A DNA stretch of 64,000 bases, taken from Candidatus Omnitrophota bacterium. GTDB lineage: Bacteria > Omnitrophota > Gorgyraeia > Gygaellales > Profunditerraquicolaceae. The stretch covers positions 264,962 through 328,961 of the forward strand of contig JBAZTA010000003.1 of NCBI GenBank assembly GCA_041662125.1, in the 5' to 3' direction. The notes under the pieces were generated by a model. That model was not told where the DNA came from and ran no database searches. It worked only from the letters and a program-made list of their open reading frames with translations. Position numbers and translations under genes: made by a program. This document shows positions 4,276 to 22,667 of this stretch, piece after piece (position 1 is the stretch's first letter; the number at the start of each line of letters is the position of its first letter).

Positions 4276-5486
4276 AACAAATTATAGTATTTTTCAGCCA
4301 TAACCCCTGCTTGAAACATATGATTCAACCGATCATAACCCTTTTCAACCATAGTATTGGATAGAGTAGCATTATTCAATATTTGTTTCATGGCGCAAGC
4401 TAATTGTTGAGAATTATTTGGTTCAACAATTAACCCTGCATCACCTAATACTTCAGGAATACCGCCAACGTCAGAAGCGATTACAGGTTTTTTATAAAGC
4501 ATTGCTTCAAGTAAAACCATTCCAAAACTCTCATAATTAATTGAGGGAAAAACAAACACATCAAAGCATTCAATGTATTCCCAGGCAGCATCGAGATACC
4601 CGGTTAAAAAAACCTTTTTTTCAAGGCGAAGCTCTTGGATAAGTTTATTTAAAGTAATTGCGTGCGCAAAAGCATCACTTCCTATAATAACTAGTTTTGA
4701 GTGCGGAAATTCATCCTGAATTTGATAAAACGCCCTGATAAGATATTCGTGGCCTTTTCTTTCCTCATAATCGCCAATGCAACCAATAATTTTGCCTGCT
4801 CCATCTAATTTCAGCGTATTCCTTTTATCTCTCAGGGATAAATGAGCGGTTCTCTCAGTAATAATGCCATTATATATATACGTTATTTTCTGGGCAGTCA
4901 GAAACCTTGTTTCTTTAAGCTGCTTGGCGCAAGAAGAAGAAACACAAATAATTTGCGAACAAGAATGATCAATCCACGCATCTATAATTCGGTCAAAAAT
5001 TCTAAAAGGCCACTGAGAGATCGTAGCGTTGTTGTGGATAACAAGAAATATCTTTTTTATCCTCGCCAATCGAGCGGCAACCACAAAAGAAAGACTTAAT
5101 TCAGCTGCCGGATAGCCGCCATTATGAGAAAATACAACTTCGAATTTATCTTTTTTTAATTTAAAATAGAATATGATTATTGAATATAAAAAAATAGGAA
5201 ATTTTAATACACTCGCTATTTTTCGCAGCTTCCAGCAAAATTGAGAGAAGCCAGAGGTTGCCCCTCTCTTAAGACTTGTGAAATTAATATCGCTCGTAGC
5301 CAATACATGAATTTGTTTTACCTTCAGGCCCCCGGCATCATAGACATACTTTCCTTTATGGCCTTTATTAAGCCACACCTCACAATGATCATTTTTAGCC
5401 GGCCATGCCTTAATCAAATTTACTAAAACGGTATCTACTCCTCCTATTTCCCGGCTCGAATAAAAGAAAACGATTTTTTTAGCCAT
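4272..5486 (-). CDS. Glycosyltransferase family 4 (GT-B, retaining)
   Basis: 404 aa. C-terminal EX7E-type motif region 'FPSINYESFGMVLLEAMLYKKPVIASDVGGIPEVL'. Confidence 0.75.
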   Translation of the reverse strand: MAKKIVFFYSSREIGGVDTVLVNLIKAWPAKNDHCEVWLNKGHKGKYVYDAGGLKVKQIHVLATSDINFTSLKRGATSGFSQFCWKLRKIASVLKFPIFLYSIIIFYFKLKKDKFEVVFSHNGGYPAAELSLSFVVAARLARIKKIFLVIHNNATISQWPFRIFDRIIDAWIDHSCSQIICVSSSCAKQLKETRFLTAQKITYIYNGIITERTAHLSLRDKRNTLKLDGAGKIIGCIGDYEERKGHEYLIRAFYQIQDEFPHSKLVIIGSDAFAHAITLNKLIQELRLEKKVFLTGYLDAAWEYIECFDVFVFPSINYESFGMVLLEAMLYKKPVIASDVGGIPEVLGDAGLIVEPNNSQQLACAMKQILNNATLSNTMVEKGYDRLNHMFQAGVMAEKYYNLL

Positions 5487-5498
5487 CTATGCTTTATA

Positions 5499-6383
5499 TT
5501 AACAAACCAAACATTGCCAACCCCATTGCTTAAATTCTGGAACGCTAAAAGAAGATTCTAAAGAAGCAAGATAATTAGGCGCTCCCGGATTGAGCGCTTC
5601 AAGTGTTTTAAGAGGGATCAATTTCACGCCTTTTATTCCCCAGGATATATAGAAAATAGTATACCCGAATCCCTCTAAATACTTATGCACAGAATCTCCG
5701 GCTCCAACAAGATTTTCATAGACGATATTTTTAATCATCTTTTGCCGTAACAAATTCTGCGCACCTTCCAACACTCTTAACTCATGCCCCTCGACATCAA
5801 TCTTTACCAATGATACGCTCTGCTTTGAAACAATTTCATCTAAGGTAGTTGTCATGGCAGGAATCCCTTGAGATTGATCATCTGAAAGATACGATGTACC
5901 CCAACTTTTCAAAATGTCGTCTTCATTAAAAGAAACAAGGCGTTGTTCTTTTCTTGCATTACTGAGCGCAGCATTAAATATCGTTATTTTTCCTGCTTTT
6001 TTGTTTTGCTTGAACAATTGAACATTATCCTTCAATACACTAAATACAAATTGATGCGGCTCAAAAGCTAAAACAGTCCCGGTTGTCCCACAGCGGCTTG
6101 CCATAATACTCGTCATATACCCGACATTGGCTCCTACATCAATAACCAGATCTCCCGGTTTGATAAGCCTCCACAACACTTCGCTCACCTCTAATTCAAA
6201 AATACACCGGTACCATAACGATAGCCCAACCGCTTCCCGGACATCAACCTTAATTTCCATGCCCCAGGGTAAAGCAAGTTTTCGCATTCTTGCTTTTTTA
6301 CAGAATGTTCCGCGCAACAATCGAATAAACAGTTGTTGCGGCCTGAATACGTAATAAGGTTGAAAAGGATTTCGAATTTTCAT
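5499..6383 (-). CDS. FkbM-family SAM-dependent methyltransferase
   Basis: 294 aa. 'LVIDVGANVGYMTSIMA' is characteristic of FkbM-family MTases. Confidence 0.7.
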   Translation of the reverse strand: MKIRNPFQPYYVFRPQQLFIRLLRGTFCKKARMRKLALPWGMEIKVDVREAVGLSLWYRCIFELEVSEVLWRLIKPGDLVIDVGANVGYMTSIMASRCGTTGTVLAFEPHQFVFSVLKDNVQLFKQNKKAGKITIFNAALSNARKEQRLVSFNEDDILKSWGTSYLSDDQSQGIPAMTTTLDEIVSKQSVSLVKIDVEGHELRVLEGAQNLLRQKMIKNIVYENLVGAGDSVHKYLEGFGYTIFYISWGIKGVKLIPLKTLEALNPGAPNYLASLESSFSVPEFKQWGWQCLVC

Positions 6384-6407
6384 ATAAAAGCAATGTAAGT
6401 ATTGCGG

Positions 6408-7148
6408 TTATTTTTTCAACATAGCTTGCCTTACTCCATACCGTATATCAAGCAACAGCTCCCAGGCATAACGCAAGAATACAGTTACAAGCCTTTTAAG
6501 CTTTTGCGCGATAACCTGTTTTCTTGACATCTTATCAATTGGGTTTTGCGGCTCATCAGAAGTTTGCTGTTGAGGAATTACAAATTTACCGATGCTTTTC
6601 AACTTCTTCGCAACGATCCAGATCACAATATCCTCTCCGCGGGCAGGATCCTTAATAATATTTCCATAAACCGTACTGAACTTTAAATATATGACCTGAA
6701 AATTATTTGATTCCAGCGCACCTCGTATCGCTACAGGATTTAACACATGCAATCCGTGTCCGAAAAATCCGTTTACCGCTGTAACCAACACGTAAGCGCC
6801 GCCAACTTTTACCATACGCAAGCAATTCTCAATGCACTGCCTTGTGTCAAAAACATGTTCTAAACATCCTATATCGAAAACGACATTATATTTCTCATTT
6901 TCTTCTCGGGGAACAGGCAAATTCATATCATATTTTAAATCTGCCCTCTCATCAAAATAATCCAATGTCGAAATCTCAGATACTCCTTTTGCAACCAGCA
7001 ACTCCTTAACATCTTTGTATTCAAATTCATTGGAAGCACCACTTGCGTCAAAAACCTGATACCCAAACATCAAAAAAGGCCCTTTTAAAATTCCCGGGAT
7101 ACTGAATATTTCGTTACAAATAGGCATAAGAGCTTTTGATAACGCCAC
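6408..7148 (-). CDS. Hypothetical protein, methyltransferase-like with degenerate motif I
   Basis: 246 aa. 'VVFDIGCLEHVFD' resembles class-I MTase motif III, but no clear GxGxG. GTG start preceded by strong SD 'AGGAGGAG'. Confidence 0.35.
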   Translation of the reverse strand: MALSKALMPICNEIFSIPGILKGPFLMFGYQVFDASGASNEFEYKDVKELLVAKGVSEISTLDYFDERADLKYDMNLPVPREENEKYNVVFDIGCLEHVFDTRQCIENCLRMVKVGGAYVLVTAVNGFFGHGLHVLNPVAIRGALESNNFQVIYLKFSTVYGNIIKDPARGEDIVIWIVAKKLKSIGKFVIPQQQTSDEPQNPIDKMSRKQVIAQKLKRLVTVFLRYAWELLLDIRYGVRQAMLKK

Positions 7149-7217
7149 AGTTCTCCTCCTGAAATTATTCCAAAACTTTTGTTTCTTAACTCGAGAACGA
7201 TCCCTTGTAAAAACGGC

Positions 7218-8150
7218 TTAATTTTTTTTCATAATAAGTGAAAATAACGCCCCCCCGTAAGGAGAATTGTTTTTAATTTTCCTTGAGAAAAACTTATTAA
7301 TTCCGTTACTACTCTCATTGACCCAAGCTCCTAAATGTTTATAGGTATTTACCGAAATTATCTTAAAATCAGGGAAAAATCTTTCATGCAATTTAAAAGG
7401 GTCAAAACCTTCACCCTTTTCATCAGGATCATGAATATCGACAATTGCGTTTATATCCTTAATAGTCAAATCTTGCCCAACAAGCTTCTTTTCCTTAACA
7501 GCCCAATAAACCTTCTGATTAAAATCCTTTCCTGGCCCAAGCCGTTTACGGAACATCCCCAAAAATATAAGGATATTGCGCGCGATTCTCTTTAATACCA
7601 TCCTTACTTTCACTAAATTTTGGTAAACAAACAAAATAAACGACCTGTTTTGAGAATGTAGTTTATTTCTCTCATGCATTATTATAAAAAGACCTCCCTT
7701 AGTAACATGTTTCCCCAGCCCTGACAAAACTTGCGGGTAATCAGGGATATGATGCAAAACTGAATTCATCGTAATACAATCAACTTTTAAGTCCATCTTG
7801 GAAATTTCAAGCGCGTCGGCTTTTATAAATTCTTTCTTAATCTTATTCAGCGATGCTAAATGTTCTTGTGTAATCTTAAGCATTTTCTCAGATAGATCCG
7901 TACAAATTATCTTGTCGTTTTCTTTCAAATACCCGGATACAAGCATAGGAACAAATCCGGTTCCGGTGCCGATATCAAGGATAGTAAGTTGCTTATCACT
8001 TTTTAAAAAGGTTTGCCCGATCTGTTCCCAGGCGGATTTTTCATCTACATATATTTCCGGATGCCTTTGCACATAATATTGGGCTTCCAGATCATGATAG
8101 ATCTCGTTAACTTCCTTAACTTGAGCGTCGTCTAAAATTATTTTAGCCAT
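7218..8150 (-). CDS. Class I SAM-dependent methyltransferase
   Basis: 310 aa. Motif I 'ILDIGTGTGFVPMLVSGYL'. Confidence 0.75.
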   Translation of the reverse strand: MAKIILDDAQVKEVNEIYHDLEAQYYVQRHPEIYVDEKSAWEQIGQTFLKSDKQLTILDIGTGTGFVPMLVSGYLKENDKIICTDLSEKMLKITQEHLASLNKIKKEFIKADALEISKMDLKVDCITMNSVLHHIPDYPQVLSGLGKHVTKGGLFIIMHERNKLHSQNRSFILFVYQNLVKVRMVLKRIARNILIFLGMFRKRLGPGKDFNQKVYWAVKEKKLVGQDLTIKDINAIVDIHDPDEKGEGFDPFKLHERFFPDFKIISVNTYKHLGAWVNESSNGINKFFSRKIKNNSPYGGALFSLIMKKN

Positions 8151-8181
8151 TATTCAACCCACTAAATCCACGTATCCCGTT

Positions 8182-9318
8182 TTAAGATTCTCTTAATGCC
8201 TGGACAACAATATCTTTTGAAAAACGATTTTCGCTTTCTTTCGAAGTAAGACAACTATACTTATATTTATCATACAAAACCGCATTAACAGCAGGGACCT
8301 GCAATGTTTTAATGCATTCTTCTGAGTCAATATTATACGCCTTTGACCCTAGTGACTTTGAAAGAAATTCCAGGGTCCTGAAGTTGGCCTTTCTCTTAAC
8401 CCGATATTCCTGAGTATAAACAAATATGATCGGTTTACGGTAAAGCACGGCGTATGAAGTAGATGTACTTGACTGCGAAATAACAAATCGGGAATCTTTG
8501 ACCAACTCGCATGTCTTTCCTTCATAACTTAAGCGACCCTTAAAAATATTTTTTTCATACGTAATGCCGGGATGCGCAGCAATGACAACCTTTACTTTAA
8601 AGCTTTTTTCGATAACACTAAAAAAATTATTCAATGATTCATAAAACTTTATAAAATCAAGTTGCTGCATGTTCAAAAGCGACACATCATCATTATACAC
8701 AGGCCCTTCATCTAAAAAAACACAATATTCACCGGCAACGACCCGTTGCGACATATTTTTAGTCAGTTGATAATAATCATAATCCTGATAATTAATATTG
8801 ACTACATGGAAATGATCCTTGAAAGCATCGCCGGTCAAGCGGCCGGCAACAAACACAAGGTCATATTTTCTTATTAAACCTGCCCTTTTGCATACATTCG
8901 CGATGAGGTTTAAAAAAGTTTGGAAAAAAACTGCCGGCCTGATCTTATCGATTATTTTCGTAGTCAAATCCTCTCTCGCATACGCCACCCAGGGAAAATA
9001 AACAGTCTTACACCTTAAACGCGTCATAAGTAAATAGAGAGATATGACCTGCCATCCAAAGTATACCTGCAAAACAAATACGGTACTTTTTAAATCCTCG
9101 TTCTTTAAACGCACTTTCAACTCGTCAAAAGAGTTAATTTCTTTGACATATTCCCGGGATAACGTGTTCTTAAAATGACGGCCTTTAAAATAAATACCTT
9201 TTAAATCCCAATACTCAACAGGTATGCCCGCATCAAGCACATCCTGAATTAACAGGTATCTTTCGATCTGGGGTGTTAAAGCAAAGATTGTGATATAAAT
9301 AACCTTTTTATGAGCCAT
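8182..9318 (-). CDS. Hypothetical GT-B-like transferase (TagF/KpsS/sialyltransferase-like pattern)
   Basis: 378 aa, no canonical motifs. C-terminal half 'KVKVVIAAHPGITYEK...FVISQSSTSTSYAVLYRKPIIFV' resembles the TagF/Capsule_synth family pattern. Confidence 0.3.
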   Translation of the reverse strand: MAHKKVIYITIFALTPQIERYLLIQDVLDAGIPVEYWDLKGIYFKGRHFKNTLSREYVKEINSFDELKVRLKNEDLKSTVFVLQVYFGWQVISLYLLMTRLRCKTVYFPWVAYAREDLTTKIIDKIRPAVFFQTFLNLIANVCKRAGLIRKYDLVFVAGRLTGDAFKDHFHVVNINYQDYDYYQLTKNMSQRVVAGEYCVFLDEGPVYNDDVSLLNMQQLDFIKFYESLNNFFSVIEKSFKVKVVIAAHPGITYEKNIFKGRLSYEGKTCELVKDSRFVISQSSTSTSYAVLYRKPIIFVYTQEYRVKRKANFRTLEFLSKSLGSKAYNIDSEECIKTLQVPAVNAVLYDKYKYSCLTSKESENRFSKDIVVQALRES

Positions 9319-9348
9319 TATGATTATGTGTTTTTTTCATAAAGAACC

Positions 9349-10737
9349 CTACGTTTGCCTAAAACCTCGAAAATCCCTGTTCTTTTTTAAATAGAGATTT
9401 TCAGCCTCTAAGATCATAGCCTTGCATTTTTTACTATAATAGTTTTTCAATAACACCGAATTAGCTTCAAGCAAACAACGATGAAAGTCATCAGCAGAAA
9501 GTTCGGTAAAATTTACGGTTAAAAGATCAGAATTAATATGTTTGTTTTCATAAAAATCCTCGCAATCTCTCAATAAACCTTTTCGGATCGCATAGTAATA
9601 CAGCGGAGACCCGGGATACGGAGTTACCGGCCGGATCGTGCGCATCTGTGAACAATCGTCATATTTCAGCAAGAATTCAACCCCTTTAAACAATGTTTCT
9701 TTGTTTTCTCCGATGTTTCCGAAAATAATGTTATAGCCTGGGCTTATTCCGGCTTTCAAAGTCGCTTCTATCCCCTTGATGATCTGTTGCGTCGTTAATG
9801 ATTTATTCATATTTTTGAGTATCCGGTTATCCATGGCTTCTATGCCATAATTAATAAAAACGCAACCGGATCTTTTCATCAGTTTCAAAACTTCTGGCAG
9901 GGCAAAATTGAGCCTGCCGCAACAAGACCATTTAATATGTAATTTGTTTTTAAGAAAATCGTTGCACAGGCTGGTTATTCGTGCGATCGAAGTCATCAAA
10001 AGTTCGTCAGTGAAAACAATATACTGTATACCGTAATCTTTCTTTAACAGCTTTATTTCTTCAATAATGCCGGCACTGGAGCGGATGCGCAGGCCTTCAT
10101 CCATCCGATAACAAAAATTACATTTAAAATTACACCCTCTGCCGGAAAGAACCGGCATCGCAAAATCACTATTCAATGCGTGAGGCATTCTTAAAAGCCT
10201 ATAATGGTCAATGGGAAACAGATTAAAAGCAGGAAATGGTATGCTGTCAATATTTTCTATAAGGGCACGCCTGGGGTTAATCACAACTTTCTGACCTTCC
10301 CTAAACGCTATTCCCAAAACATTCGAAAACGATGTTTTGTTCTTCAAAGCATTCAGCAATTCAATAACAGTGATCTCGCCTTCCCCCATCACCACAGCAT
10401 CCGCTTGTGTTTTTAAAAGAAAATATTCCGGTTCAGGGGTCGGCCCATGGCCGCCGATAACAAAAAAAGGCCGTTTACGAAGCTCGCGTATTACACGCGA
10501 TATCTTTAACAACTTTCTATATTGATAATACCCCGCGATCACACTAACCCCAACAACATCAAAATGATTCTTTTTCAAATATTCCTTAAGATGCTCTTCC
10601 GGATAATGGGATATGTCCTGATTATAAATTTCTACCTCATGCCCGTTTTGAGATAAAACCGCAGCAATATATGCAAGTCCTTGCGGGAAGAAATGAATAT
10701 AGGCTCCGTTATCATAAATAACCAATAAAATTTTCAT
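9349..10737 (-). CDS. B12-binding-domain radical SAM enzyme (class B)
   Basis: 462 aa. N-terminal B12-binding-like domain and radical SAM 'GCNFKCNFCY'. Paralogous architecture to 2776..4275. Confidence 0.75.
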   Translation of the reverse strand: MKILLVIYDNGAYIHFFPQGLAYIAAVLSQNGHEVEIYNQDISHYPEEHLKEYLKKNHFDVVGVSVIAGYYQYRKLLKISRVIRELRKRPFFVIGGHGPTPEPEYFLLKTQADAVVMGEGEITVIELLNALKNKTSFSNVLGIAFREGQKVVINPRRALIENIDSIPFPAFNLFPIDHYRLLRMPHALNSDFAMPVLSGRGCNFKCNFCYRMDEGLRIRSSAGIIEEIKLLKKDYGIQYIVFTDELLMTSIARITSLCNDFLKNKLHIKWSCCGRLNFALPEVLKLMKRSGCVFINYGIEAMDNRILKNMNKSLTTQQIIKGIEATLKAGISPGYNIIFGNIGENKETLFKGVEFLLKYDDCSQMRTIRPVTPYPGSPLYYYAIRKGLLRDCEDFYENKHINSDLLTVNFTELSADDFHRCLLEANSVLLKNYYSKKCKAMILEAENLYLKKNRDFRGFRQT

Positions 10738-10747
10738 AAAATATCCC

Positions 10748-12259
10748 TTAATGTATCGCAGGTTGCTTTAGAAATAATCTTTTTATATCCTGCCTATCTA
10801 ATTCACTCAAACTGGCATAATATAAACTTAACGAAACGCAATAGATAACAGACATCTCAATAAGTACTGCAAATATGTTCTGAGGGTACCAATACTTCAG
10901 CATAACGGCAGAAGCTAAATACACAAACACATATATCAGCAGATTACCGCGAATTGACCTTTTAAAGTACTCAACAAACTTAATTTTCAGATTTATGAGT
11001 GATATTCGCAGAGTAAAAGGGAAACCTATCAATATCATTGAAACTGTCAAGCCGGCTGCAGGCGCGATGATCCCCAATCTTTTTATAAAAGTAAGGGTCA
11101 AAACTATATTTGCGGCTACAACTCCCAATTGAATAAAAAGAGGTTTTTTCACAACTCCCTTAGCAGAAAGCATACTGCTTGCTAACTCCAAGGTCCCGTT
11201 AAAAAGCCAGAATACTATAATGATCTTTGCGGGCAGGATACTTTCGCGAAAAGTATCCCCCATCCAGTATATAATAAACGGCTCGGCAAAGACAAAGAGC
11301 ATAAGAATGACCGGTAAAAAGGCCGCAGACATATACTTGGTCCCTTTAAAGACAAGCTGCCGTTGTAATTCATGTTCTCCCCTTCCTTCCATTTCAGACG
11401 CTATTGTCCATGGCGGCGCACCGATCGTAGAATTAATTACCCTTAAGTACGATTGAATATTATAGGCAACCGCATAGGTAGATACCGCAGAAAGCGAGAT
11501 ATAATATCCAATAATGAGGTTATGGATTTGAAATAAAAAACTACTAAGCAATGCGCTGACAAAACAAAAAAAACTGAAATTAAATATGAATTTGAAAGTT
11601 TTAAGTTCTGTATAGGGGAAAGTTATCCTAAAATCATACCTTTTCTTGACAATACAATACAAAACCGTACTCCCCAATATGGTTAAAACCTGATTCACGA
11701 TGAATAATTGAACTATCCCGCACCCTGACATCAAGAGGGCATACGTACATATACCATTTAAAATTTGAACGGATATATTAACCGAAGCATCTAAATCCCA
11801 TAAATTTAATCCCTGGATGAAACCGCGGAATGTATTGATCGGCCAAACCAGCAATGCTGACAAAGCTGCTACTATAAAGAGGTCTCGAGCAACAGCAATA
11901 TTCGCAGGCAGAACTTTAAAGAATTTGACAAAGAATACTGAGAAAAAAAACAATAATAACGATACCGTGATGCCTATCAGCACATAAAAGGTGAACGATG
12001 CATTAACGATCTTATTGACACTCTCGTTGTCCTTTTTTCCGTTATACTCGGAAACATACTTAGTCAATGCCGACATTACGCCAAGATCTAAAAGCCCGAA
12101 ATATCCGGTAACAGTCATGGCAACCAAGTAAACTCCGTAAATTTCTTTTCCGACATATTTAACTATAAAAGGAAAAAGAAAGAAAGAGATCGCAACGCTG
12201 GCGATTCGGTTTGCCGCTAAAAAACTGATATTTTTTCCGATGAGGCGTATTTTCGACAT
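10748..12259 (-). CDS. Polysaccharide biosynthesis protein / Wzx-like oligosaccharide flippase (MOP superfamily)
   Basis: 503 aa, about 12-14 predicted TM helices, typical Wzx/MATE-like topology. No soluble domains. Confidence 0.6.
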   Translation of the reverse strand: MSKIRLIGKNISFLAANRIASVAISFFLFPFIVKYVGKEIYGVYLVAMTVTGYFGLLDLGVMSALTKYVSEYNGKKDNESVNKIVNASFTFYVLIGITVSLLLFFFSVFFVKFFKVLPANIAVARDLFIVAALSALLVWPINTFRGFIQGLNLWDLDASVNISVQILNGICTYALLMSGCGIVQLFIVNQVLTILGSTVLYCIVKKRYDFRITFPYTELKTFKFIFNFSFFCFVSALLSSFLFQIHNLIIGYYISLSAVSTYAVAYNIQSYLRVINSTIGAPPWTIASEMEGRGEHELQRQLVFKGTKYMSAAFLPVILMLFVFAEPFIIYWMGDTFRESILPAKIIIVFWLFNGTLELASSMLSAKGVVKKPLFIQLGVVAANIVLTLTFIKRLGIIAPAAGLTVSMILIGFPFTLRISLINLKIKFVEYFKRSIRGNLLIYVFVYLASAVMLKYWYPQNIFAVLIEMSVIYCVSLSLYYASLSELDRQDIKRLFLKQPAIH

Positions 12260-12282: not shown

Positions 12283-13302
12283 TTATTGGTCAGCTCGATT
12301 AGCAGCTTTATTAGACAGAGAAATATTATGAGCGCATATCCGACACATAGGACTGAGATAATAATTCCCTGACTTGTGCTGACCGCGAAGCTCTTGTATC
12401 TTAGGGCAATTCCAGAGATCTTTCAAACTCGCAGTATTAACGTTGCCTATAGTAATATTGCCTGCTACATCAGTGGCACAAACACAAACCGTGCCATCGG
12501 TCATGACAACCAAACGTTGAAAAGGCTGTTTACAGCAATACTCATGGAGCGGAACATTGAACGGATTGTTTTTCTGAATTGACCCGAATTCCTGGCAGTA
12601 AGAAATAGTAATTTCATCTACCCTTTTATGCCAATACTCATAGAACTCTCTTGTCTCATGCCTGTTTATGCCGGATTCAGTATACTGCAATCGAATGAAC
12701 GGTTTTCTTGATTTTCCCCGTATATCGATCAAGTTTTTAATATTCTCAATGACCGCATCATAATCGGCGCCAATTCTGATCTTTTCATACGTCTGCTTGG
12801 TAAATCCATCGATTGAAATAATAAGTTGATCCAGCTTTGCTTCTACAATTTCACGGCCTATATTTTGATTCATCAGCGTCGCGTTCGTTAACGAGGTAAC
12901 TTCCAAAATACCTTTAGATTTCGCATAACGCACCATATCCATAAAGTTTTTATTCAGCATAGGCTCACCCCGCCAGCTTAATTTCAAAGCGGGGATCCTA
13001 TATTTTGCGCATTCATCGGCAATTTTTTTAAAAGTATCCATCGCCATAAGGGGAACTTTCGTAGTCTTTGCTACGGGGAGCGTTTCATCACTCTGAAAAC
13101 ACATAGAACACCGCAGGTTGCAAACATTGGAAGCTTCTGCGATGACATCCAAAGGGTATTTTCCAACTTTAAATTTACCCGGGTAAGCGTTAAAACGATA
13201 ACGATAGATATAAAATTGAGGATTGAATCCCCCTTTTTTGTAGAGGTTAGCTACCTTTGTAAAGAAACCTGCTTTAATCTTCCAGTTTTTCTTAAGTTTC
13301 AT
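12283..13302 (-). CDS. Radical SAM / SPASM-domain protein (paralog A)
   Basis: 339 aa. 'CNLRCSMCFQ' radical SAM motif. C-terminal cysteine-rich SPASM-like region 'CCKQPFQRLVVMTDGTVCVCATD...CRICAHN'. Confidence 0.75.
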   Translation of the reverse strand: MKLKKNWKIKAGFFTKVANLYKKGGFNPQFYIYRYRFNAYPGKFKVGKYPLDVIAEASNVCNLRCSMCFQSDETLPVAKTTKVPLMAMDTFKKIADECAKYRIPALKLSWRGEPMLNKNFMDMVRYAKSKGILEVTSLTNATLMNQNIGREIVEAKLDQLIISIDGFTKQTYEKIRIGADYDAVIENIKNLIDIRGKSRKPFIRLQYTESGINRHETREFYEYWHKRVDEITISYCQEFGSIQKNNPFNVPLHEYCCKQPFQRLVVMTDGTVCVCATDVAGNITIGNVNTASLKDLWNCPKIQELRGQHKSGNYYLSPMCRICAHNISLSNKAANRADQ

Positions 13303-14300
13303 TGCGTATCTCTTTTTGAATCAAAAGAATCGGGACAATCAGCGCATAGATGCATTTTTTTGAAACCTCCCTGCCGGTGAAGCTTTCTTACCTTCTGCAT
13401 TATTTCTCCCGTCCAGATATCGGGAACCGTTTGAGTCAAAACATCGCCGATAACATACCCCTTTTTCATATCCCGAGGACAAAGCGTTGCAGTACCATCA
13501 CTCAATATGGTCAGCCGCCGCCATAATTCCGCGCAACAAAAATTATCATCCTGTTTATAATTTTCCCTATGATAAAGCCTTTCTTCTCCCGTTTTACAGT
13601 CAAGATAACGTAAGATCGCTATACGGTTTAGTTTACCCGCCCAATAAGCTATAAACTTGTTTTTCTCGGATGGGTCATCTTCATCCATTTCAATAAAATT
13701 CGCCTTAATATGCAGCCTTGACTTAGGGTTCTGGTTACGCTGCCTGATCAAATCTTCAACCGCTTGCATGACCTTTTCAAATCTTGCCCCGATTCGTATT
13801 TTTTCGTATCTTTCTTTATCGGCGCTATCCAGAGAAATAATAAGCCTGTCAAGGCCGGATTCGATAAGTTTACGGTTAAAATCATGCCCCAGGAGAGTGC
13901 CATTGGTATGCATGTTCACATCAATAACTCCCTTTTCTTTCGCATATCTGATTACTTCAAAAAGTTGCGGGTACAGGGTCGGTTCTCCTAACCCGGTCAA
14001 ATTAAAAGCGCATAATCCATGCGTGCACGCTTGGTCTAATATTTTTTTTACCAAATTAAGATCCATATATCCTTTACCGGGGATATATGCCTGCCGGGGA
14101 CACATAGGGCATTTTAAGTTACAGACGTCAACCGCAAAAAGGTCTATCTGCAACGGAACCTTATCAACGATCCCGGCTTGCGGATACTGGTCCCATTTCC
14201 TTCGGTATTCGATCCACTTTTTATCATGGAATACCAAACCCGTTTTTTTGTCCGTGCCTAAAACCTCCGGAGAAATACTTTTTACCTTAACCCGTATCAT
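13299..14300 (-). CDS. Radical SAM / SPASM-domain protein (paralog B)
   Basis: 333 aa. 'CNLKCPMCPR'. C-terminal 'CCAELWRRLTILSDGTATLCPRD...CADCPD'. Shares 'YEKIRIGA', 'RYAK.KGV', 'DRLIISLD' with paralog A. ATGA overlap with paralog A. Confidence 0.75.
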   Translation of the reverse strand: MIRVKVKSISPEVLGTDKKTGLVFHDKKWIEYRRKWDQYPQAGIVDKVPLQIDLFAVDVCNLKCPMCPRQAYIPGKGYMDLNLVKKILDQACTHGLCAFNLTGLGEPTLYPQLFEVIRYAKEKGVIDVNMHTNGTLLGHDFNRKLIESGLDRLIISLDSADKERYEKIRIGARFEKVMQAVEDLIRQRNQNPKSRLHIKANFIEMDEDDPSEKNKFIAYWAGKLNRIAILRYLDCKTGEERLYHRENYKQDDNFCCAELWRRLTILSDGTATLCPRDMKKGYVIGDVLTQTVPDIWTGEIMQKVRKLHRQGGFKKMHLCADCPDSFDSKRDTQ

Positions 14301-14312: not shown

Positions 14313-15374
14313 TCAAGGATTTAACGGCGAGCCTTCAATCATGTTCCACCCTAATGGTGTCCCTTTTTTTATATCCTTACGCGCTTTTTTTCCCAGGACC
14401 CTTTCCCAATAACGGGGATGTAAACCGTGCCCGGGCCTTATAGAGCGGATATTATCTTTCGAAAATTTTTCACCTTTAAAGATATCTTTCACTACAAAAA
14501 CAGACCTGCGAAAGACTCGATTTTCTTTTTGTTTTTCCGTGAGTTCATATGAAACCTTTCCTAAAGCTTTTTCTGCGGTTCGTATATCAGAGACCATTGT
14601 CCTGAATTCTGCCGGTTCAGTCGAGAATGAGCAGTCGGGGCCGGGATCTTTTCGGGAAAGCGTAAGATGCTTCTCTATGATACATGCACCCAGGGCTATT
14701 GAGGCTACGGCAACAGCACTGCCTAAGGAGTGGTCGGAAAGCCCAACAGGAAAGCCGTATACTTTTGAAAGATCAGGAATCGTATTCAAATTCATTTCTT
14801 TAGATGGTGCAGGATACGCGCTGGTACACTTAAGCAAAGCTATTTTCCTGTTTCCCTCATTAAGGACAGTTTGAACTGCCTCATCTATTTCTGGCCTAGA
14901 GGCCATGCCGGTTGAGATGATGATAGGCTTTCCGGTTGCAGCGACCTTCTTTAAAAAAGGAATATCTACCAGCTCAAATGAAGCGACCTTATATGCGGGC
15001 ACTTTCATTTTTTCCAAATAATCAACCGATGTAAAATCAAAAGGGGTTGAGAAAAAGTCAAGCCCAAGGCTGTCACAGGCCTTCTTTAATCGGGGATGCC
15101 ATTGCCAGGGCGTAAACGCTTCTTGATAAAGCCGGTAAAGATTTTTTCCCGCCCAAACTGTCCCTTTAATCTTAAAATATTTGTTTTCACAATCGATAGT
15201 CATAGTATCCGGAGTATATGTCTGGATCTTTACCGCATCCGCGCCCGAATCGGCAGCGGCCTTTATAATACGGAGGGCTTTATTAAAACTCATAGCATGA
15301 TTCGCTGACATCTCAGCAATGATATATACCGGCTTCCCTGGGCCTATAGTTTTCTTATTGATCTTTATGTTCAT
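14313..15374 (-). CDS. pseI: Pseudaminic acid synthase (NeuB/PseI family nonulosonate synthase)
   Basis: 'IIAEMSANHAMSFNKALRIIKAAADSGADAVKIQTY' NeuB-family TIM barrel. C-terminal SAF-like domain. Start trimmed to 'MNIKINKK' with an upstream SD-like AAAGG. Confidence 0.8.
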   Translation of the reverse strand: MNIKINKKTIGPGKPVYIIAEMSANHAMSFNKALRIIKAAADSGADAVKIQTYTPDTMTIDCENKYFKIKGTVWAGKNLYRLYQEAFTPWQWHPRLKKACDSLGLDFFSTPFDFTSVDYLEKMKVPAYKVASFELVDIPFLKKVAATGKPIIISTGMASRPEIDEAVQTVLNEGNRKIALLKCTSAYPAPSKEMNLNTIPDLSKVYGFPVGLSDHSLGSAVAVASIALGACIIEKHLTLSRKDPGPDCSFSTEPAEFRTMVSDIRTAEKALGKVSYELTEKQKENRVFRRSVFVVKDIFKGEKFSKDNIRSIRPGHGLHPRYWERVLGKKARKDIKKGTPLGWNMIEGSPLNP

Positions 15375-15390: not shown

Positions 15391-16089
15391 TCACCCAAAA
15401 ATACGCAGAGCCATAAATGCTTCGGCAAATAAATAGCCTGATTCTGAACCTCTAACCTTCGCCAGTGCCCTTAAAACTTCAGGCGACCGAGGATGAGGAT
15501 CCAGGCGCGCTTCACCTTTGTAAGTTTGCATTGAATTGATCTTTGCAGTAAGATCTGCTTCGGAAACCTCAACATAGACGTTTGGTTCCCATTGCGCTGG
15601 ACGCAGGTACCCGGTGCTGCTGGGGACTTCACCGCATAAAACAGAGATATGCGCATCGGCCGCCGGCCGCGCAGCAACAACGACCGCATTATGGCAATAT
15701 TGATGGTCAATATTCGTACAATAGCGATGATGGGTCAAGATCAAGTCGGGTTTTACGCGGGCAATAATTGCCTCCATCCAATGGACTATTTCTAACAATG
15801 AACTTTTATCCATTTCATTATCAGCGAATTTCCCAAGATAAATATGTTCCTTTGAAACACCTAAGACAGCACAAGCCTTCTGGCAATCTTTTCTTAATGC
15901 GGAGAGTGCGGCTTTCCTTGATTTTAATGATGCTGCGTTTCGACGGCCATGAATGCCTGTCGCGGGGATCGCGACATGAACCTCTGCGCCAAGACGGGTC
16001 AGTTTTTTGATAGTCGCACCTGCCGCTAATGTCTCATCGTCGGGATGCGCGAAAAGTGTCAAAATGGTAGAATAGTCCTTCAGGATCAT
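15391..16089 (-). CDS. PIG-L/LmbE-family N-acetylglucosaminyl deacetylase
   Basis: 232 aa. 'FAHPDDE' zinc-binding motif of the LmbE/PIG-L family. Confidence 0.75.
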   Translation of the reverse strand: MILKDYSTILTLFAHPDDETLAAGATIKKLTRLGAEVHVAIPATGIHGRRNAASLKSRKAALSALRKDCQKACAVLGVSKEHIYLGKFADNEMDKSSLLEIVHWMEAIIARVKPDLILTHHRYCTNIDHQYCHNAVVVAARPAADAHISVLCGEVPSSTGYLRPAQWEPNVYVEVSEADLTAKINSMQTYKGEARLDPHPRSPEVLRALAKVRGSESGYLFAEAFMALRIFG

Positions 16090-16787
16090 TTCCCTCTCCT
16101 TGATTTAGATTGAGTGATTTTAGCTCGGGCATAAAGCGCGCCTTCGCGCATTACAGGGTGAGAAAATTCATACCGTAAACCACCCTGTTCAATAAATGCC
16201 TTTGGATATTCGTCTGCGTCCAGCATGCGGATATGATCGTAGATCTTTCCCAAGGTTTTATGCTTGAGCGCTATCTTACTTTGATCAGGCCGGCGCCGTA
16301 AAAACATTACCGCTTTACCCTGCTGAGCAACTGGCTTTGGTTCCTGCATGATTATTTCCTTGATCATTTTCGCGATGATCTTTGAAGAACGGATATAAAT
16401 ATCCTGGGCCCTTCCTCGCAATGAAAGCTGCCGTTTAAAATAAACCGGCCCGGCATCTAAGACGCCGGTCATTCTTAATGCCGATATTTTAGTGTTTGTA
16501 AACCCGCGGACGATCAAATTCTGTAGAGGGCTGCCCCCCCGCCCAAACGGGACATCTGTCTCGTGAAAACAAACACATTCATAAGAATTCACGATCGAAG
16601 ATGGCACTCGCTTGCTCCAGTGGGGGAAAAAAATATAACGCGGTTTAAAGCGTTTTATTCTTTCAAGTGTTAAATCTTTTGCAGCGGTAATGAGATGCCA
16701 ATTACCTGGATATTTGCTAATACTATTCCTGTAAGCTTTAATATTCCACGGACGTATTGTTGCAATAATATATACTTTTTTACTCAT
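16086..16787 (-). CDS. Formyltransferase-family protein (putative sugar N-formyltransferase)
   Basis: 233 aa. 'HETDVPFGRGGSPLQN' matches the H-x-S/T-x-L-P-x-x-R-G formyl transferase motif. Lacks the Fmt C-terminal tRNA-binding domain. Confidence 0.65.
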   Translation of the reverse strand: MSKKVYIIATIRPWNIKAYRNSISKYPGNWHLITAAKDLTLERIKRFKPRYIFFPHWSKRVPSSIVNSYECVCFHETDVPFGRGGSPLQNLIVRGFTNTKISALRMTGVLDAGPVYFKRQLSLRGRAQDIYIRSSKIIAKMIKEIIMQEPKPVAQQGKAVMFLRRRPDQSKIALKHKTLGKIYDHIRMLDADEYPKAFIEQGGLRYEFSHPVMREGALYARAKITQSKSRRGK

Positions 16788-16799
16788 GGCATCATATTT

Positions 16800-17519
16800 C
16801 TATTGCTGTTTTTGTAAAGGCACATCATAGTCTAGGCGCCCGGAACGTATGATCGCAAGGCTTTTTGGCCCTTCATTGAAAAGAAGATCAATTGCCGACA
16901 TATGCGATATAAAACCTTCAAACATTTGCTTATATACCGGATGCTCATATCGATGATATACCAGGGTTATCCCTTCTTGAGCAAAGACATTATCTTGTTC
17001 TATATAGTCAGCTGCACGTACGGGAGAAAGATATATGTCAGCCTCCAGATAATGACAAATATTTGTCAACAACTTAACCTTTTCGCCGGAAACTGGGATT
17101 TCGGATGCTCTCATAAGCTTTGTTTTGACTCCAAGCTGTTTTTTTAAGAAATTGATCGTGGCTACGTTTAATGTTAAAAGATACTCCCATGATTGATCAT
17201 AGAGCGCTTTCAACTCATCACAATACTGTTTCCAGTACTCAGCACGTTTATAATACTGTTCAATGGTCCCCCAGTGTTTCCTGCACCACGGTGAAGAATT
17301 GCCGGTCTTTACCTCGTTCATTTTCTGTCCCAAGTTTTGAATAACCGGAACGGTTAACCATTTCGACTGATTTTCTGCCGTCTTAATTCTATTGCGTTGC
17401 TGCCACGCCTGTTTTTCGAACTGAACCGTATCCAATAGTACGAACACATCCGCCGTATCCATGAGGTCAAAATACCCTATCCAGGGCAGATATGTCGGCT
17501 GCATGATTACCGCTATCAT
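16800..17519 (-). CDS. WbqC-family protein (function unknown, O-antigen/nonulosonate clusters)
   Basis: 239 aa. N-terminus 'MQPTYLPWIGYFDLM' is the hallmark of the WbqC-like family. Confidence 0.6.
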   Translation of the reverse strand: MIAVIMQPTYLPWIGYFDLMDTADVFVLLDTVQFEKQAWQQRNRIKTAENQSKWLTVPVIQNLGQKMNEVKTGNSSPWCRKHWGTIEQYYKRAEYWKQYCDELKALYDQSWEYLLTLNVATINFLKKQLGVKTKLMRASEIPVSGEKVKLLTNICHYLEADIYLSPVRAADYIEQDNVFAQEGITLVYHRYEHPVYKQMFEGFISHMSAIDLLFNEGPKSLAIIRSGRLDYDVPLQKQQ

Positions 17520-18559
17520 CTGCGCGCCTCTCTCTTAAGATATGCCAGTAATCTTGAAGCAATACGCACAGTGCCGTTGGACGCAATAAGGTTTTTCCCT
17601 TTATAAGCCATATTTTTTCTCATAGGATAATTTTCTAATAACTCTTCTGCGGCATGTACTATTCTTTCGTCTGAAACATCGCTATGCATTCCCAGGCTTA
17701 CAACAGCACCTGCCGTATCAAAAATCCTCGCCTCTTTCTCCTGTTGCTCGTTTTGTGAAACAACCAGCGCAGGGACACCTAAACAACATGCTTCATACAA
17801 TAACGTACCTGCGCTCAGAAACGCAACGTCCGCTTGAGATAGCGCATCAGCAATGTGAGCTATATTACGGCTTATTATAAATCGGGCATCATTCTTCAGA
17901 ATTGAAGTAATTTTACCAACCTGCGCAACTGCAGCGCCAAGAATGACATGAAACTTGATCGAATGTTTAAGTTTTTTCAACAGAGGCACTACACGTAACA
18001 TTAAATTGCCGGAGTCGCTACCGCCAAAACAGACAAGGACCTTTTTGACTTTCGCGGATATTTTATTTTTTTTAAACGCCAGAGCCGCGAAATCAGGATG
18101 CATGATAATGTAGTCACGCCCGGTTAGATATTTATCTGACGGTATGCCTGGCGTTTTAGGTAAGCCAAGGAGATTAGGGCGAATCAGGTAATCCTGGCCG
18201 TTAAGACCGGGGCCTTCATCGTCAATACAAACGGTCATTCCTGATAATCCTTTTATATGTTTTGCTTCTTTTTGATCAATAGTAAGCAAATCGGCTATTG
18301 CCATATCAAAACGAGCTTCCTTTGGAGAATTCCGCCGGACATAGATATCGTAATCTATATCAGGGATAAACTTCCTGACAACATCTTTATTATTGGTCTC
18401 AATGGTAAAATGGCATTTCGTTAAATTTAAAAAACCCAACATCAATGACCGGCAACGGGACAGATGCCCCAACCCGGTTTTTTTATCAGCATCAACTCTG
18501 AAATATACAGAAACAACCCCTTGAGTGATATGCCCTTTCTTTTTTGTATCATTCACCAT
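17516..18559 (-). CDS. pseG: UDP-2,4-diacetamido-2,4,6-trideoxy-beta-L-altropyranose hydrolase (PseG/SpsG family)
   Basis: 347 aa. 'VYFRVDADKKTGLGHLSRCRSL' matches the GxGHxxRC motif of the PseG family. GT-B-like fold. Confidence 0.75.
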   Translation of the reverse strand: MVNDTKKKGHITQGVVSVYFRVDADKKTGLGHLSRCRSLMLGFLNLTKCHFTIETNNKDVVRKFIPDIDYDIYVRRNSPKEARFDMAIADLLTIDQKEAKHIKGLSGMTVCIDDEGPGLNGQDYLIRPNLLGLPKTPGIPSDKYLTGRDYIIMHPDFAALAFKKNKISAKVKKVLVCFGGSDSGNLMLRVVPLLKKLKHSIKFHVILGAAVAQVGKITSILKNDARFIISRNIAHIADALSQADVAFLSAGTLLYEACCLGVPALVVSQNEQQEKEARIFDTAGAVVSLGMHSDVSDERIVHAAEELLENYPMRKNMAYKGKNLIASNGTVRIASRLLAYLKREARR

Positions 18560-18568
18560 TTTATGGAC

Positions 18569-19342
18569 TCATTGAGCGCTTTTTTTTAAAAAAGACCTGT
18601 CTTTTTCCTTTGATTTCATCAATCCTTCATTCCTCAAAAAACCCTGATTTAATACAGAGAGCCCCGGATTCTTTTCAAGAAGCGCCAAAATATCGTTCAT
18701 ACCAAAACATGGATTGAGTGGATACAACTTTTCATATATGGTTTTTACAAATTCAAAATCTTCTGGTTCATCAACAGTCCAGCGTAAAGCGGAAAGATCC
18801 TTATTCGATGCAAGATTTACTATTTTAAAACGTTTGGGTTGTCCTTCAAAAAAAAGCGAGATGTGTTCTAATTGAGATGGCAATAAAGCCTCACTATGAG
18901 CCTCCTGAAGAGCTTTAAAAGCAAATATCTCTGCATCAAGACCATCGGGATATGTTGGCGGCATACAATTAGTGCCATAATCGCCTTTTTTATTCAGATA
19001 AATGCGCACCAACGCGTCAATAACGCTCATGTCGATCAAAGGGCAGTCTCCGGTAAGGCGGACGATGTGATCGGGTTTAAACTTGAGCGCTGCCTGATAA
19101 AACCGGTCAAGGACATTTTCCAGATTTCCGCAAAAAACGCTCACTTTAAGGCGTTTCCCTAAATCAACAATCTGTCTGTCCTCGGAAGAAGTACTCGTGA
19201 GAACAACTACGCGGTCAATTGTTTCGCAAAGTTTAACACGCTCAATTTCTAATTCTAACATCGGCCTTCCCAAGATCGGTTTGAGGACTTTATTAGGAAA
19301 ACGCTTTGATGACATTCTGGCTTGAATAAATGCTGCTATCAT
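18569..19342 (-). CDS. pseF: Acylneuraminate/pseudaminate cytidylyltransferase-family protein (PseF/SpsF-like)
   Basis: 257 aa. 'IQARMSSKRFPNKVLKPILGRPML' matches the CMP-NeuAc synthetase family N-terminus. Confidence 0.65.
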   Translation of the reverse strand: MIAAFIQARMSSKRFPNKVLKPILGRPMLELEIERVKLCETIDRVVVLTSTSSEDRQIVDLGKRLKVSVFCGNLENVLDRFYQAALKFKPDHIVRLTGDCPLIDMSVIDALVRIYLNKKGDYGTNCMPPTYPDGLDAEIFAFKALQEAHSEALLPSQLEHISLFFEGQPKRFKIVNLASNKDLSALRWTVDEPEDFEFVKTIYEKLYPLNPCFGMNDILALLEKNPGLSVLNQGFLRNEGLMKSKEKDRSFLKKSAQ

Positions 19343-19345
19343 TAC

Positions 19346-20248
19346 TTACCTCATCCAAAGGGTAGGGTTTAAAATCTTTTCATCTACTTGATCAAAATAC
19401 TGCGAGACTAAAGGGAGTAAATTGCGTGCCGGTTTTCTTCCCCAGCTTCCCAGATTCTCCTCTAGCTGTTCAGGTGTTTCTACCCCGATAACCAGTTTTG
19501 CCGTAGGAAATCTTTCTTTTAGATATCCCAATGCTAATTCATGTTTCGTGACATTAAGCTGTTGGGCAAGTGATTTTATTTTTTCAAGCACCGGCTTGGC
19601 AAAAGACATTTGCCCAGAAAGCTCGTTTGGATCCATAAGAATAAGACCCTGAAGAAAAACACTCCGGATATATATCTGCCGGCCCGCTTTCTCTGCCAGT
19701 TCAAAAACTCTCTGCTTCTCAAATCTGCTGTCCAGGATATTAGCAGGTAGTTGCACCATATCAAACCCGTTAATAAGCAACGCTTCTAAAGCTCTTTTGG
19801 GAGAATAAACCGAAACACCTACCTTTTTGATCTTTCCGGACTTAACAAAACTATGCAAAATCTCACCAAGGCCGTTTGGCAACTGACTCAAAAGGTCTTC
19901 TTTATGAAGCATCAATCCATACAAAGATGAAACCCCTAATCTTTCTAAAGACCTATTCAAGGCTTCAGACATGATCTGAGGATCGCAATGGTTGAGTTCA
20001 GGATTGATTTTACTGATAACTTGTGCCTCGTGCGAAATGCTCAGTTGAGAAAATGCCGTTCCCAGCATTTTCTCGCTTCCTCCATAGTCTTGTGCGGTAT
20101 CAAACTCTCTAATCCCATTTTCCCAAGCTGTCCGTATTATTTCAGTCACCCTCGCCTGGTCAGGTTGACCAGTTTTGTTGGCTACACCATACAAAAGTCC
20201 AAACTGTACGGTCCCTAACACAAAGGGATGAAAGTTTCCTGGATTCAT
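19346..20248 (-). CDS. Aldo/keto reductase
   Basis: 300 aa. 'EFDTAQDYGGSEKMLG' AKR signature region. Confidence 0.7.
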   Translation of the reverse strand: MNPGNFHPFVLGTVQFGLLYGVANKTGQPDQARVTEIIRTAWENGIREFDTAQDYGGSEKMLGTAFSQLSISHEAQVISKINPELNHCDPQIMSEALNRSLERLGVSSLYGLMLHKEDLLSQLPNGLGEILHSFVKSGKIKKVGVSVYSPKRALEALLINGFDMVQLPANILDSRFEKQRVFELAEKAGRQIYIRSVFLQGLILMDPNELSGQMSFAKPVLEKIKSLAQQLNVTKHELALGYLKERFPTAKLVIGVETPEQLEENLGSWGRKPARNLLPLVSQYFDQVDEKILNPTLWMR

Positions 20249-20263
20249 AATAAAGAATAATGC

Positions 20264-21580
20264 TTACGTCAGGCGTTTAAAGCCGGCAGTTGACGGTTTT
20301 CCTCTTAATTGAAGCTCAACATCCCCTGTTCTCAAAGCTTTTGAAATATGGGCAAATGTCTCATCGACTGCAATAAGATACCGCTTCACGTGAGACGGCT
20401 GATGTGCGTACATGGAATAAAACGATGTAGACGCCAAAAATCCTCTTTCGAGCATTAATTGTACAAATAACGCCTTTAAAACTAACGTAAAGTCGTATTC
20501 GAACATAAAATGGCTAAGCGGGGCAATCCCGGCAACATGGATCTTTATCCCATGTTTTTCAGCCAGCATCTTCCAGCCTTCCTGGACCTGCTTTCCTACC
20601 AATACCAGATGCTTTCCTACGTCGCATACCTGATGTTTCTTTATGGTCGCCAATGCAGCAGTAGGCCCAATGCGTTCTGTCCACATAGTACTGCTGATAA
20701 ATGTCTTTTGCGCAGCATCCATAAAGCGTTCTTTGCCTATAATCGCAGCTATTGGATAGCCATTGCCTAAAGCTTTTGAGAATACGGCTATATCTGGCTC
20801 AATATCATAAACTAAGTGTGCTCCGCCTGAATTCAGTCGAAACCCGGCAGAAATCTCATCTATCACAAAAACAGCTTTTGTCTTGTCTGCAAGAGAACGA
20901 ACCTCTTTAAAAAACCCCGGTTCAGGCTCATCATCCCGTATGGGCTCCATAACAATAGCAGCCAGATCTTTTCCATGCTGAGCTATAATAGTATTAAGCT
21001 CATCAATATGATTATATCGAAAAGGAATTGCTGTCCCGGTTAAACCTTTCGGGACTCCGCGTGGATCCAATCCTGATAAAAGATGCTCACCTAATGAATC
21101 TTTAGTTCCTAAATTCGCCGAAAGATACCAATCATGCCACCCATGATACCCGCAAAAAGCCACGACATCTTTACCCGTATACGCCCGGGCGATCCTAACA
21201 GCTATAGCCATTGATTCTCCACCAGTGCGGGCATAGCGCACTTTATCTGCCCACGGATGAATCTGACACAGCAAATCAGCAAGTTCAACTTCTTCCGGGC
21301 AATTTAAAGAAGAGCTCGATCCTTTTTTTATCGCTTTACACACAGCTTCATCAACATCATCATCGGCGTAGCCAAGCACATTTGCACCAATGCCGCTGAT
21401 GCTCATGTCAATATACTTATTCCCATCTAAATCCCAAACGTGCGCTCCTTTTGCCTTACTATAATAGCCGGGCCATACTCCGAGTGAAAACTGATCAGGC
21501 CGTTTTGAAAGAAGCTGGGTCATACCGGGTATACGCTGCTTTGCGCGCTGCTGCATTAATTGGCTTTTGCTGGTATTCAT
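20264..21580 (-). CDS. Class III (GSA-aminomutase-like) PLP-dependent aminotransferase
   Basis: 438 aa. 'GAHVWDLDGNKYIDMSISGIGANVLGY' is typical of the class III aminotransferase N-terminal region. No heme-pathway context. Confidence 0.7.
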   Translation of the reverse strand: MNTSKSQLMQQRAKQRIPGMTQLLSKRPDQFSLGVWPGYYSKAKGAHVWDLDGNKYIDMSISGIGANVLGYADDDVDEAVCKAIKKGSSSSLNCPEEVELADLLCQIHPWADKVRYARTGGESMAIAVRIARAYTGKDVVAFCGYHGWHDWYLSANLGTKDSLGEHLLSGLDPRGVPKGLTGTAIPFRYNHIDELNTIIAQHGKDLAAIVMEPIRDDEPEPGFFKEVRSLADKTKAVFVIDEISAGFRLNSGGAHLVYDIEPDIAVFSKALGNGYPIAAIIGKERFMDAAQKTFISSTMWTERIGPTAALATIKKHQVCDVGKHLVLVGKQVQEGWKMLAEKHGIKIHVAGIAPLSHFMFEYDFTLVLKALFVQLMLERGFLASTSFYSMYAHQPSHVKRYLIAVDETFAHISKALRTGDVELQLRGKPSTAGFKRLT

Positions 21581-21597
21581 AATTAACTCCGGGTATT

Positions 21598-22635: not shown

Positions 22636-22667
22636 ACCTCAAATTTTAAATTAAAATTATTAAATAC

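Follow-up and report, generated by a model that had tools for sequence, protein, structure and literature searches.

The stretch of DNA analyzed here, hereafter the window, comprises 64,000 nucleotides (nt) of a contig from a Candidatus Omnitrophota bacterium (JBAZTA010000003.1) and contains, on the minus strand, two adjacent genes encoding predicted radical S-adenosylmethionine (SAM) enzymes with a C-terminal Twitch domain. We denote these genes A (13299-14300, the upstream member of the pair, 333 amino acids (aa)) and B (12283-13302, the downstream member, 339 aa). The pair lies 12 nt downstream of pseI, the gene for pseudaminic acid (Pse) synthase (14313-15374, minus strand), and is followed, 23 nt beyond B, by a gene for a Wzx-type flippase (10748-12259, minus strand; Pfam Polysacc_synt and MatE). 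The original prediction, made from the sequence of the window, described two coupled radical SAM paralogs of about 335 aa, each with a CxxxCxxC motif, immediately downstream of pseI, and this much holds. The product of pseI scores 492 bits against NCBIfam TIGR03586 (cut-off 340) and contains the Pfam NeuB and SAF domains; the ATG of B and the TGA of A share 4 nt in an ATGA overlap at 13299-13302 (minus strand; junction acgcaATGAaac). The longest open reading frame of pseI begins at a TTG at 15428, overlapping the upstream PIG-L gene by 38 nt, but the ATG at 15374 is the more likely start because the TIGR03586 match begins at residue 34 and the orthologs are 347-357 aa long.

By motif and domain score, A and B belong to the radical SAM superfamily. 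The CxxxCxxC motif, which ligates the SAM-cleaving [4Fe-4S] cluster, reads CNLKCPMC in A (C60, C64 and C67; 14100-14123, minus strand) and CNLRCSMC in B (C61, C65 and C68; 13099-13122, minus strand), and is unchanged across 22 aligned A orthologs and across the aligned B orthologs. The Pfam Radical_SAM model (PF04055) matches A with 73 bits and B with 60.6 bits, well above its gathering score of 29.5, and the GEP motif is likewise retained in both proteins. AlphaFold2 predicts confident monomer folds for A and B (predicted local distance difference test scores of 91.3 and 90.6, respectively; predicted template modeling score, 0.90). When aligned to each other, the two proteins prove to be paralogs (32% identity, 299 residues, E 3e-51), and the window encodes no other member of the family. 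Of two stretches previously said to be shared by them, YEKIRIGA is indeed identical in both, whereas DRLIISLD occurs in A alone, the B counterpart being DQLIISID.

The C-terminal domain is where the original prediction has to be corrected. This portion had been taken for a Cys-rich, SPASM-like domain, and the Pfam SPASM model does match it (49.8 bits in A and 49 bits in B; cut-off 21.5). The canonical SPASM domain, which holds two auxiliary clusters, is defined by a seven-Cys motif (CX9-15GX4C-gap-CX2CX5CX3C-gap-C). This motif is absent from A and B, in which four C-terminal cysteines are invariant instead. When 22 orthologs of A (40-80% identity) and 22 of B (39-78%) are aligned, the only invariant cysteines besides those of the CxxxCxxC motif are C256, C274, C319 and C322 in A (domain residues 254-325; 13326-13541, minus strand) and C257, C275, C320 and C323 in B (residues 255-326; 12325-12540, minus strand). 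Their spacing, X17/X44/X2, recurs in 237 of the 240 homologs. Both chains stop 11-16 residues past the CxxC, and no cysteine follows it in 226 of the 239 homologs that were captured with looser spacing. Twitch is a truncated SPASM domain (PMC9012708), and the Pfam SPASM model, whose span includes the Twitch portion, therefore still recognizes A and B.

Among all PDB sequences, the best profile match of both proteins is BtrN (E 3.7e-21 for A and 4.9e-16 for B), the 2-deoxy-scyllo-inosamine dehydrogenase of the butirosin pathway (PDB 4M7T/4M7S), which is also the top structural match of A in a Foldseek search. BtrN is a carbohydrate small-molecule enzyme of an aminosugar pathway and, like A and B, consists of a radical SAM core and a C-terminal Twitch domain with identical spacing of the auxiliary-cluster cysteines; the C-terminal domains of both A and B align to it without gaps, the four cysteines landing on C169, C187, C232 and C235. 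In BtrN, which carries out a two-electron oxidation of a secondary alcohol, the auxiliary cluster has four Cys ligands; in MoaA, there are three, leaving an open iron site for the substrate (PMC9012708). Given the four invariant cysteines in the BtrN register and the four-Cys ligation of BtrN itself, we classify A and B as BtrN-type Twitch enzymes with a predicted single auxiliary cluster, rather than two-cluster SPASM proteins. Each is thus predicted to hold two [4Fe-4S] clusters, one that cleaves SAM and one auxiliary cluster whose ligands are all cysteines.

A and B are nevertheless not orthologs of BtrN (EC 1.1.99.38): the identity is just 17-21%, and the genes reside in a Pse polysaccharide operon, not in a 2-deoxystreptamine aminoglycoside context. 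Compared with BtrN (about 250 aa), A (333 aa) and B (339 aa) are extended at the N-terminus by a conserved stretch of some 50 residues, and their barrel is longer. They also come as a conserved paralog pair and belong to a nonulosonate pathway, whereas BtrN serves an aminocyclitol pathway. The other aminoglycoside Twitch dehydrogenases and epimerases, SpeY and probably also HygY and NeoN, are farther from A and B than BtrN is. The peptide- and protein-modifying enzymes anSME, SuiB, PqqE and ChlB have the seven-Cys motif and two auxiliary clusters, in contrast to the four cysteines and early end of A and B. No curated NCBIfam radical SAM family (W_rSAM_matur, spiroSPASM, N_Twi_rSAM, MoaA, viperin and others) reaches its cut-off for either protein. 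The highest scores are those of W_rSAM_matur (111 for A and 103.3 for B, against 380), followed by spiroSPASM (75.6 and 89, against 250); N_Twi_rSAM gives 67.5 for A (against 170). The uncharacterized spiro-SPASM family (TIGR04321) is of interest for its comparable fusion of a cytidylyltransferase to a radical SAM enzyme: its radical SAM/Twitch half (model positions 227-503) aligns with residues 46-323 of A and B, almost the entire proteins, and its N-terminal half resembles the cytidylyltransferase encoded in the window, matching the N-terminus of that protein. A and B are not members of this family, and the two functions reside here in separate genes.

The genomic context is that of Pse biosynthesis. 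Flagella, capsules and lipopolysaccharides carry nonulosonic acids such as Pse, legionaminic acid (Leg) and sialic acids, which shape immune recognition. Upstream of pseI, in a long, tightly packed polysaccharide operon on the minus strand, Pfam and NCBIfam searches identify (15391-24828, minus strand), in this order, PseB, PseC, a formyltransferase, a class-III aminotransferase, an aldo/keto reductase, a CTP_transf_3 cytidylyltransferase, a PseG-like protein, WbqC, a formyltransferase-like protein and a PIG-L deacetylase. The same set in the same order is found in five further loci (L084, L085, L088, L094 and L096); in L084, the product of the cytidylyltransferase gene is 597 aa long, and a PseG-like gene of its own was not called. 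PseB, PseC, the PseG-like protein, PseI and the cytidylyltransferase are each encoded by a separate gene of the operon, and neither A nor B matches any enzyme of the core Pse pathway (PseB, C, H, G, I and F). The core pathway thus appears to be complete in the operon, with N-acylation apparently performed by the formyltransferase and/or WbqC. Since all core genes are present beside them, A and B are best viewed as additional, tailoring enzymes.

This arrangement is conserved. The order PseI, A, B was found in ten independent loci (the window, L001, L002, L084-L088, L094 and L096) from Omnitrophota, a PVC-group bacterium, Thermodesulfobacteriota and Syntrophus; two further contigs (L004 and L089) end inside A. 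At 60% identity or above, there are about 60 representatives of A (60-80% identity) and about 55 of B (60-79%), mostly on the same contigs, from the same groups and from Oligoflexia. The core common to the pair loci consists of PseB, PseC, the cytidylyltransferase, the PseG-like protein, WbqC, PseI, A and B; WbqC is encoded in every pair locus that has an upstream flank. The formyltransferases, PIG-L, the class-III aminotransferase and the aldo/keto reductase are frequent but optional and are missing from the Syntrophus locus L002. A metagenome scan with WbqC recovered close relatives only and contributed two of the pair loci. In a neighbor-joining tree, the deep nodes of which are unreliable, A and B form separate clades, and we reject a recent tandem duplication as the origin of the pair. 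Because they score equally against A and B, the single-copy enzymes found in PseG/WbqC clusters are not regarded here as specifically A-like.

The wider family extends well beyond the paired genes. A phmmer search of 1.84 billion representatives with A as the query retrieved 645 at E<=1e-30, and a genome scan produced 80 loci with 28-76% identity from Campylobacterota (among them Sulfurimonas, Aliarcobacter and Helicobacter bilis), Clostridia, Pelagibacter, Nitrosopumilus, Azospirillum soli, Chloroflexota, DPANN archaea and others. A NeuB-family gene is present in the flank of half of these loci (40/80). In a census of neighbors within 5 kb, the CTP_transf_3 cytidylyltransferase is the commonest (42 of the 80 loci, immediately adjacent in 21), ahead of NeuB (37, 10 adjacent), NTP_transferase (25, 6 adjacent), a PseB-like short-chain dehydrogenase/reductase (SDR; 23, 3 adjacent), DegT aminotransferase (15, 7 adjacent), UDP-GlcNAc 2-epimerase (13, 3 adjacent), GFO/IDH/MocA oxidoreductase (12, 1 adjacent), PseG (11, none adjacent), PIG-L (10, 1 adjacent), Maf glycosyltransferase (6, none adjacent) and flagellin (5, none adjacent). 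Where 5 kb or more of sequence is available on each side (43 loci), NeuB or a cytidylyltransferase is encoded nearby in 27. Several Twitch radical SAM proteins (P0271, P0275, P0284, P0365 and P0384) are fusions, the partners being CTP_transf_3, an FkbM methyltransferase, a D-2-hydroxyacid dehydrogenase, a hexapeptide acyltransferase and a GNAT domain, all of which are sugar-tailoring enzymes. The gene of the dehydrogenase fusion lies between those for a B12-binding radical SAM protein and a cytidylyltransferase, with no NeuB in the 14.4 kb shown. In Sulfurimonas and other Campylobacterota (L024-L040), a divergent radical SAM protein of about 280 aa, sometimes followed by a weakly cytidylyltransferase-like gene, precedes the Twitch radical SAM enzyme; several loci of this type look like flagellin glycosylation islands, given the presence of Maf (6 loci) and flagellin (5 loci) genes.

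A role of A and B in sugar tailoring is well supported by the likeness to BtrN, the conserved PseI-A-B synteny, the association of the family with nonulosonate and cytidylyltransferase genes, and the lack of an associated peptide gene. The original prediction, in placing these enzymes in a carbohydrate pathway rather than among peptide maturases, is borne out by the same observations. The strongest neighbor family-wide points to cytidine monophosphate (CMP) activation and, together with the position of A and B after pseI, suggests action on a free or CMP-bound nonulosonate. Our preferred interpretation, to which we assign a probability of about 0.5, is that A and B are two separate, predicted catalytically competent BtrN-type enzymes that form a conserved Pse tailoring module in anaerobes and perform a dehydrogenation of the BtrN type. 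Our best guess for the substrate, by analogy with BtrN, is Pse or CMP-Pse; the position of attack and the dehydrogenase chemistry are likewise inferred. In this scheme, each enzyme would reductively cleave SAM to generate a 5'-deoxyadenosyl radical, which would take a hydrogen atom off one of the nonulosonate carbons. The likeliest targets would be the carbinol carbons C4 and C8, the two secondary alcohols of Pse, either in the free sugar or in CMP-Pse, which would place the reaction downstream of PseI and close to the CMP activation step. The substrate radical would then lose one electron via the auxiliary cluster to give a ketone, independently of both NAD and O2, with the two paralogs working one after the other on a single scaffold, each catalyzing a step of its own. 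The resulting ketones could be end products or, where the aldo/keto reductase and the class-III aminotransferase are present, could be reduced or aminated.

Several observations weigh against this interpretation. No member of the family has been characterized, and both substrate and chemistry are assigned by analogy at 17-21% identity. The Twitch enzymes also include redox-neutral epimerases, and the minimal locus L002 encodes no ketone-processing reductase or aminotransferase other than PseC. A near-invariant extra cysteine of A, C255, has no assigned role, and 16 of the 43 well-flanked family loci have neither NeuB nor a cytidylyltransferase nearby.

The main rival, which we regard as unlikely, makes A and B HygY/NeoN-type radical epimerases that would each invert one stereocenter of Pse or of its hexose precursor, removing a hydrogen atom and donating one back, so that a stereoisomer of Pse is produced. 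HygY and NeoN share the Twitch architecture; the two paralogs could fit two stereocenters, and L002 manages without an obligatory ketone-processing enzyme. The Twitch sugar epimerases HygY and NeoN rely, however, on a specific cysteine as the hydrogen donor, and beyond the seven cluster ligands neither A nor B has an invariant cysteine, which tilts our guess toward dehydrogenation. In favor of an epimerase, 61 of 62 A orthologs keep C255, although this residue adjoins the first auxiliary-cluster ligand. Against it, some orthologs have F, V, A or Y in place of C235 (in A) or C236 (in B), and several distant members of the family contain only seven cysteines in the entire protein. Conversely, the hydrogen donor of an epimerase may be a tyrosine or another residue.

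The original prediction further proposed that A and B may form a heteromer, and an obligate heterodimer catalyzing a single reaction appears improbable to us. In its favor, the two genes are strictly adjacent and in constant order in the ten loci, co-occur on contigs, are translationally coupled at their junction in most loci, and belong to deep, distinct clades rather than being a recent duplicate. Overlaps of 4 nt are, however, common in the window: there are at least eight others, including some between unrelated operon genes (PseG/WbqC, FT2/PIG-L, 4272-4275, 29277-29280, 33249-33252, 39503-39506, 48809-48812 and 57571-57574). The A/B junction itself varies: the genes overlap by 4 nt in the window and by 8 nt in L001 and are separated by 1 nt in L085 and by 23 nt in L086. 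An A ortholog with 61% identity is encoded without B on a 10-kb Oligoflexia contig, next to genes for an amidase, formyltransferases, PIG-L and PseB, and most relatives are single genes. All catalytic motifs are kept in both proteins, and each is confidently modeled as a monomer. The variable junction, the lone A, the single-gene relatives and the retention of motifs in both proteins lead us to favor two enzymes that would act independently, in sequence. Such an arrangement would resemble that of AhbC/AhbD and NirJ1/NirJ2, paralogous radical SAM pairs of heme pathways that are encoded together and act sequentially on one scaffold. The likeness is one of logic, not membership: these enzymes have other substrates and full SPASM domains, and their NCBIfam models match A and B only partially.

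Less probable still is that A and B act early or on a side group, that is, on a UDP-hexose intermediate, an N-acyl substituent or the acyl donor of WbqC or an acyltransferase. The family fusions with GNAT and hexapeptide N-acyltransferases, the constant presence of WbqC in the flanked pair loci and the DegT aminotransferase genes adjoining several single-copy family members are compatible with this possibility. Against it stand the placement of the pair after pseI in 10/10 loci and the cytidylyltransferase, both the strongest neighbor and a fusion partner across the family. Finally, we reject as highly implausible the notion that A and B are maturases of peptides (RiPPs, made by the ribosome and modified after translation), proteins (anSME-like) or tungsten or molybdenum cofactors, because there is no precursor peptide gene beside the pair, the gaps of 12 and 23 nt being too short for one, no PqqD or RiPP recognition element (RRE) domain was matched in A or B by Pfam at E<=0.01, and all genes flanking the pair, in the window and in all ten loci, are sugar-pathway genes, in addition to the subthreshold NCBIfam scores and the missing seven-Cys motif described above.

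A and B are of a known kind, the Twitch radical SAM sugar-tailoring enzymes; what is new is that nonulosonate operons have recruited two of these as a conserved pair and that a large related family exists. We found no paper that connects the biosynthesis of Pse, Leg or nonulosonates in general with radical SAM enzymes, in agreement with the earlier statement that such chemistry is not known in Pse/Leg pathways, and a literature search on spiro-SPASM, or on radical SAM enzymes together with SPASM or flagellin glycosylation, returned nothing relevant. The only lead comes from a surface-sugar region of Campylobacter fetus, where phase-variable 'MoaA/NifB/PqqE' radical SAM genes are located beside a formyltransferase gene (PMC6321876). 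The paired genes at PseI suggest an undescribed, oxygen-free tailoring step for sialic-acid-like sugars. The known biosynthesis of nonulosonates involves only enzymes that depend on NAD, pyridoxal phosphate, acetyl-CoA or phosphoenolpyruvate, and the sugar-modifying radical SAM enzymes of the Twitch type are known so far from antibiotic pathways. Conservation of a radical SAM module in these operons implies an unrecognized oxygen-independent sugar modification and, probably, unrecognized sugar structures; the proposed role, if true, would add a primary-metabolism, cell-surface function to the repertoire of Twitch-type enzymes. More broadly, and with chances that we would put a little short of even, A, B and the wider family (at least 645 representatives, in Pse/Leg clusters of bacteria and archaea) may carry out an undescribed radical step on free or CMP-activated nonulosonates, giving rise to a keto, epimeric or aminated class without a known route. 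The family reaches the flagellin glycosylation islands of Campylobacterota as well as Pelagibacter, Nitrosopumilus and gut Clostridia, and its cultured members are open to experiment.

The remainder of the operon contains additional genes that bear on the glycan produced. Beyond the flippase are genes for a B12-binding radical SAM protein, a 378-aa protein, methyltransferases and a family GT4 glycosyltransferase. The same operon contains two genes for B12-binding radical SAM proteins (9349-10737 and 2776-4275, minus strand), probably C-methyltransferases, so that, with A and B, it encodes four radical SAM enzymes; a gene of this kind is located within 10 kb of the pair also in L001, L002, L085, L087, L088 and L089. 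For the 378-aa protein (8182-9318, minus strand), no match was obtained in Pfam, in NCBIfam or among PDB sequences. Its orthologs (411-603 bits) follow A and B, either directly or past Wzx and the B12-binding radical SAM protein, in L085, L088, L094 and L096, and it may be a glycosyltransferase for the modified sugar.

WbqC, the formyltransferase-like protein and the PIG-L deacetylase (15391-17519, minus strand) constitute a recurring sub-module. The formyltransferase-like protein is close to PDB 1zgh (E 1.4e-63); for WbqC, a PDB sequence search gave no solved relative, and a literature search gave nothing useful. No GNAT-type PseH is encoded in the 64-kb window, and WbqC may replace PseH or remodel N-acyl groups. 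The class-III aminotransferase, aldo/keto reductase and CTP_transf_3 cytidylyltransferase form a trio (18569-21580, minus strand) that is present in most pair loci and absent from Syntrophus L002. Farther upstream, within the sugar locus, a gene for a thiamine pyrophosphate-dependent E1_dh protein shares 4 nt with one that faintly resembles transketolase_C (28342-30206, minus strand), and the two may point to a two-carbon branched sugar or side chain; in L002, an E1_dh gene is also found near the pair, after genes for a GHMP kinase and a nucleotidyltransferase. The G+C content falls to 0.37-0.38 at 4001-12000, the distal part of the polysaccharide locus, compared with about 0.44 across most of the window; lowered G+C content is common in surface-glycan regions.

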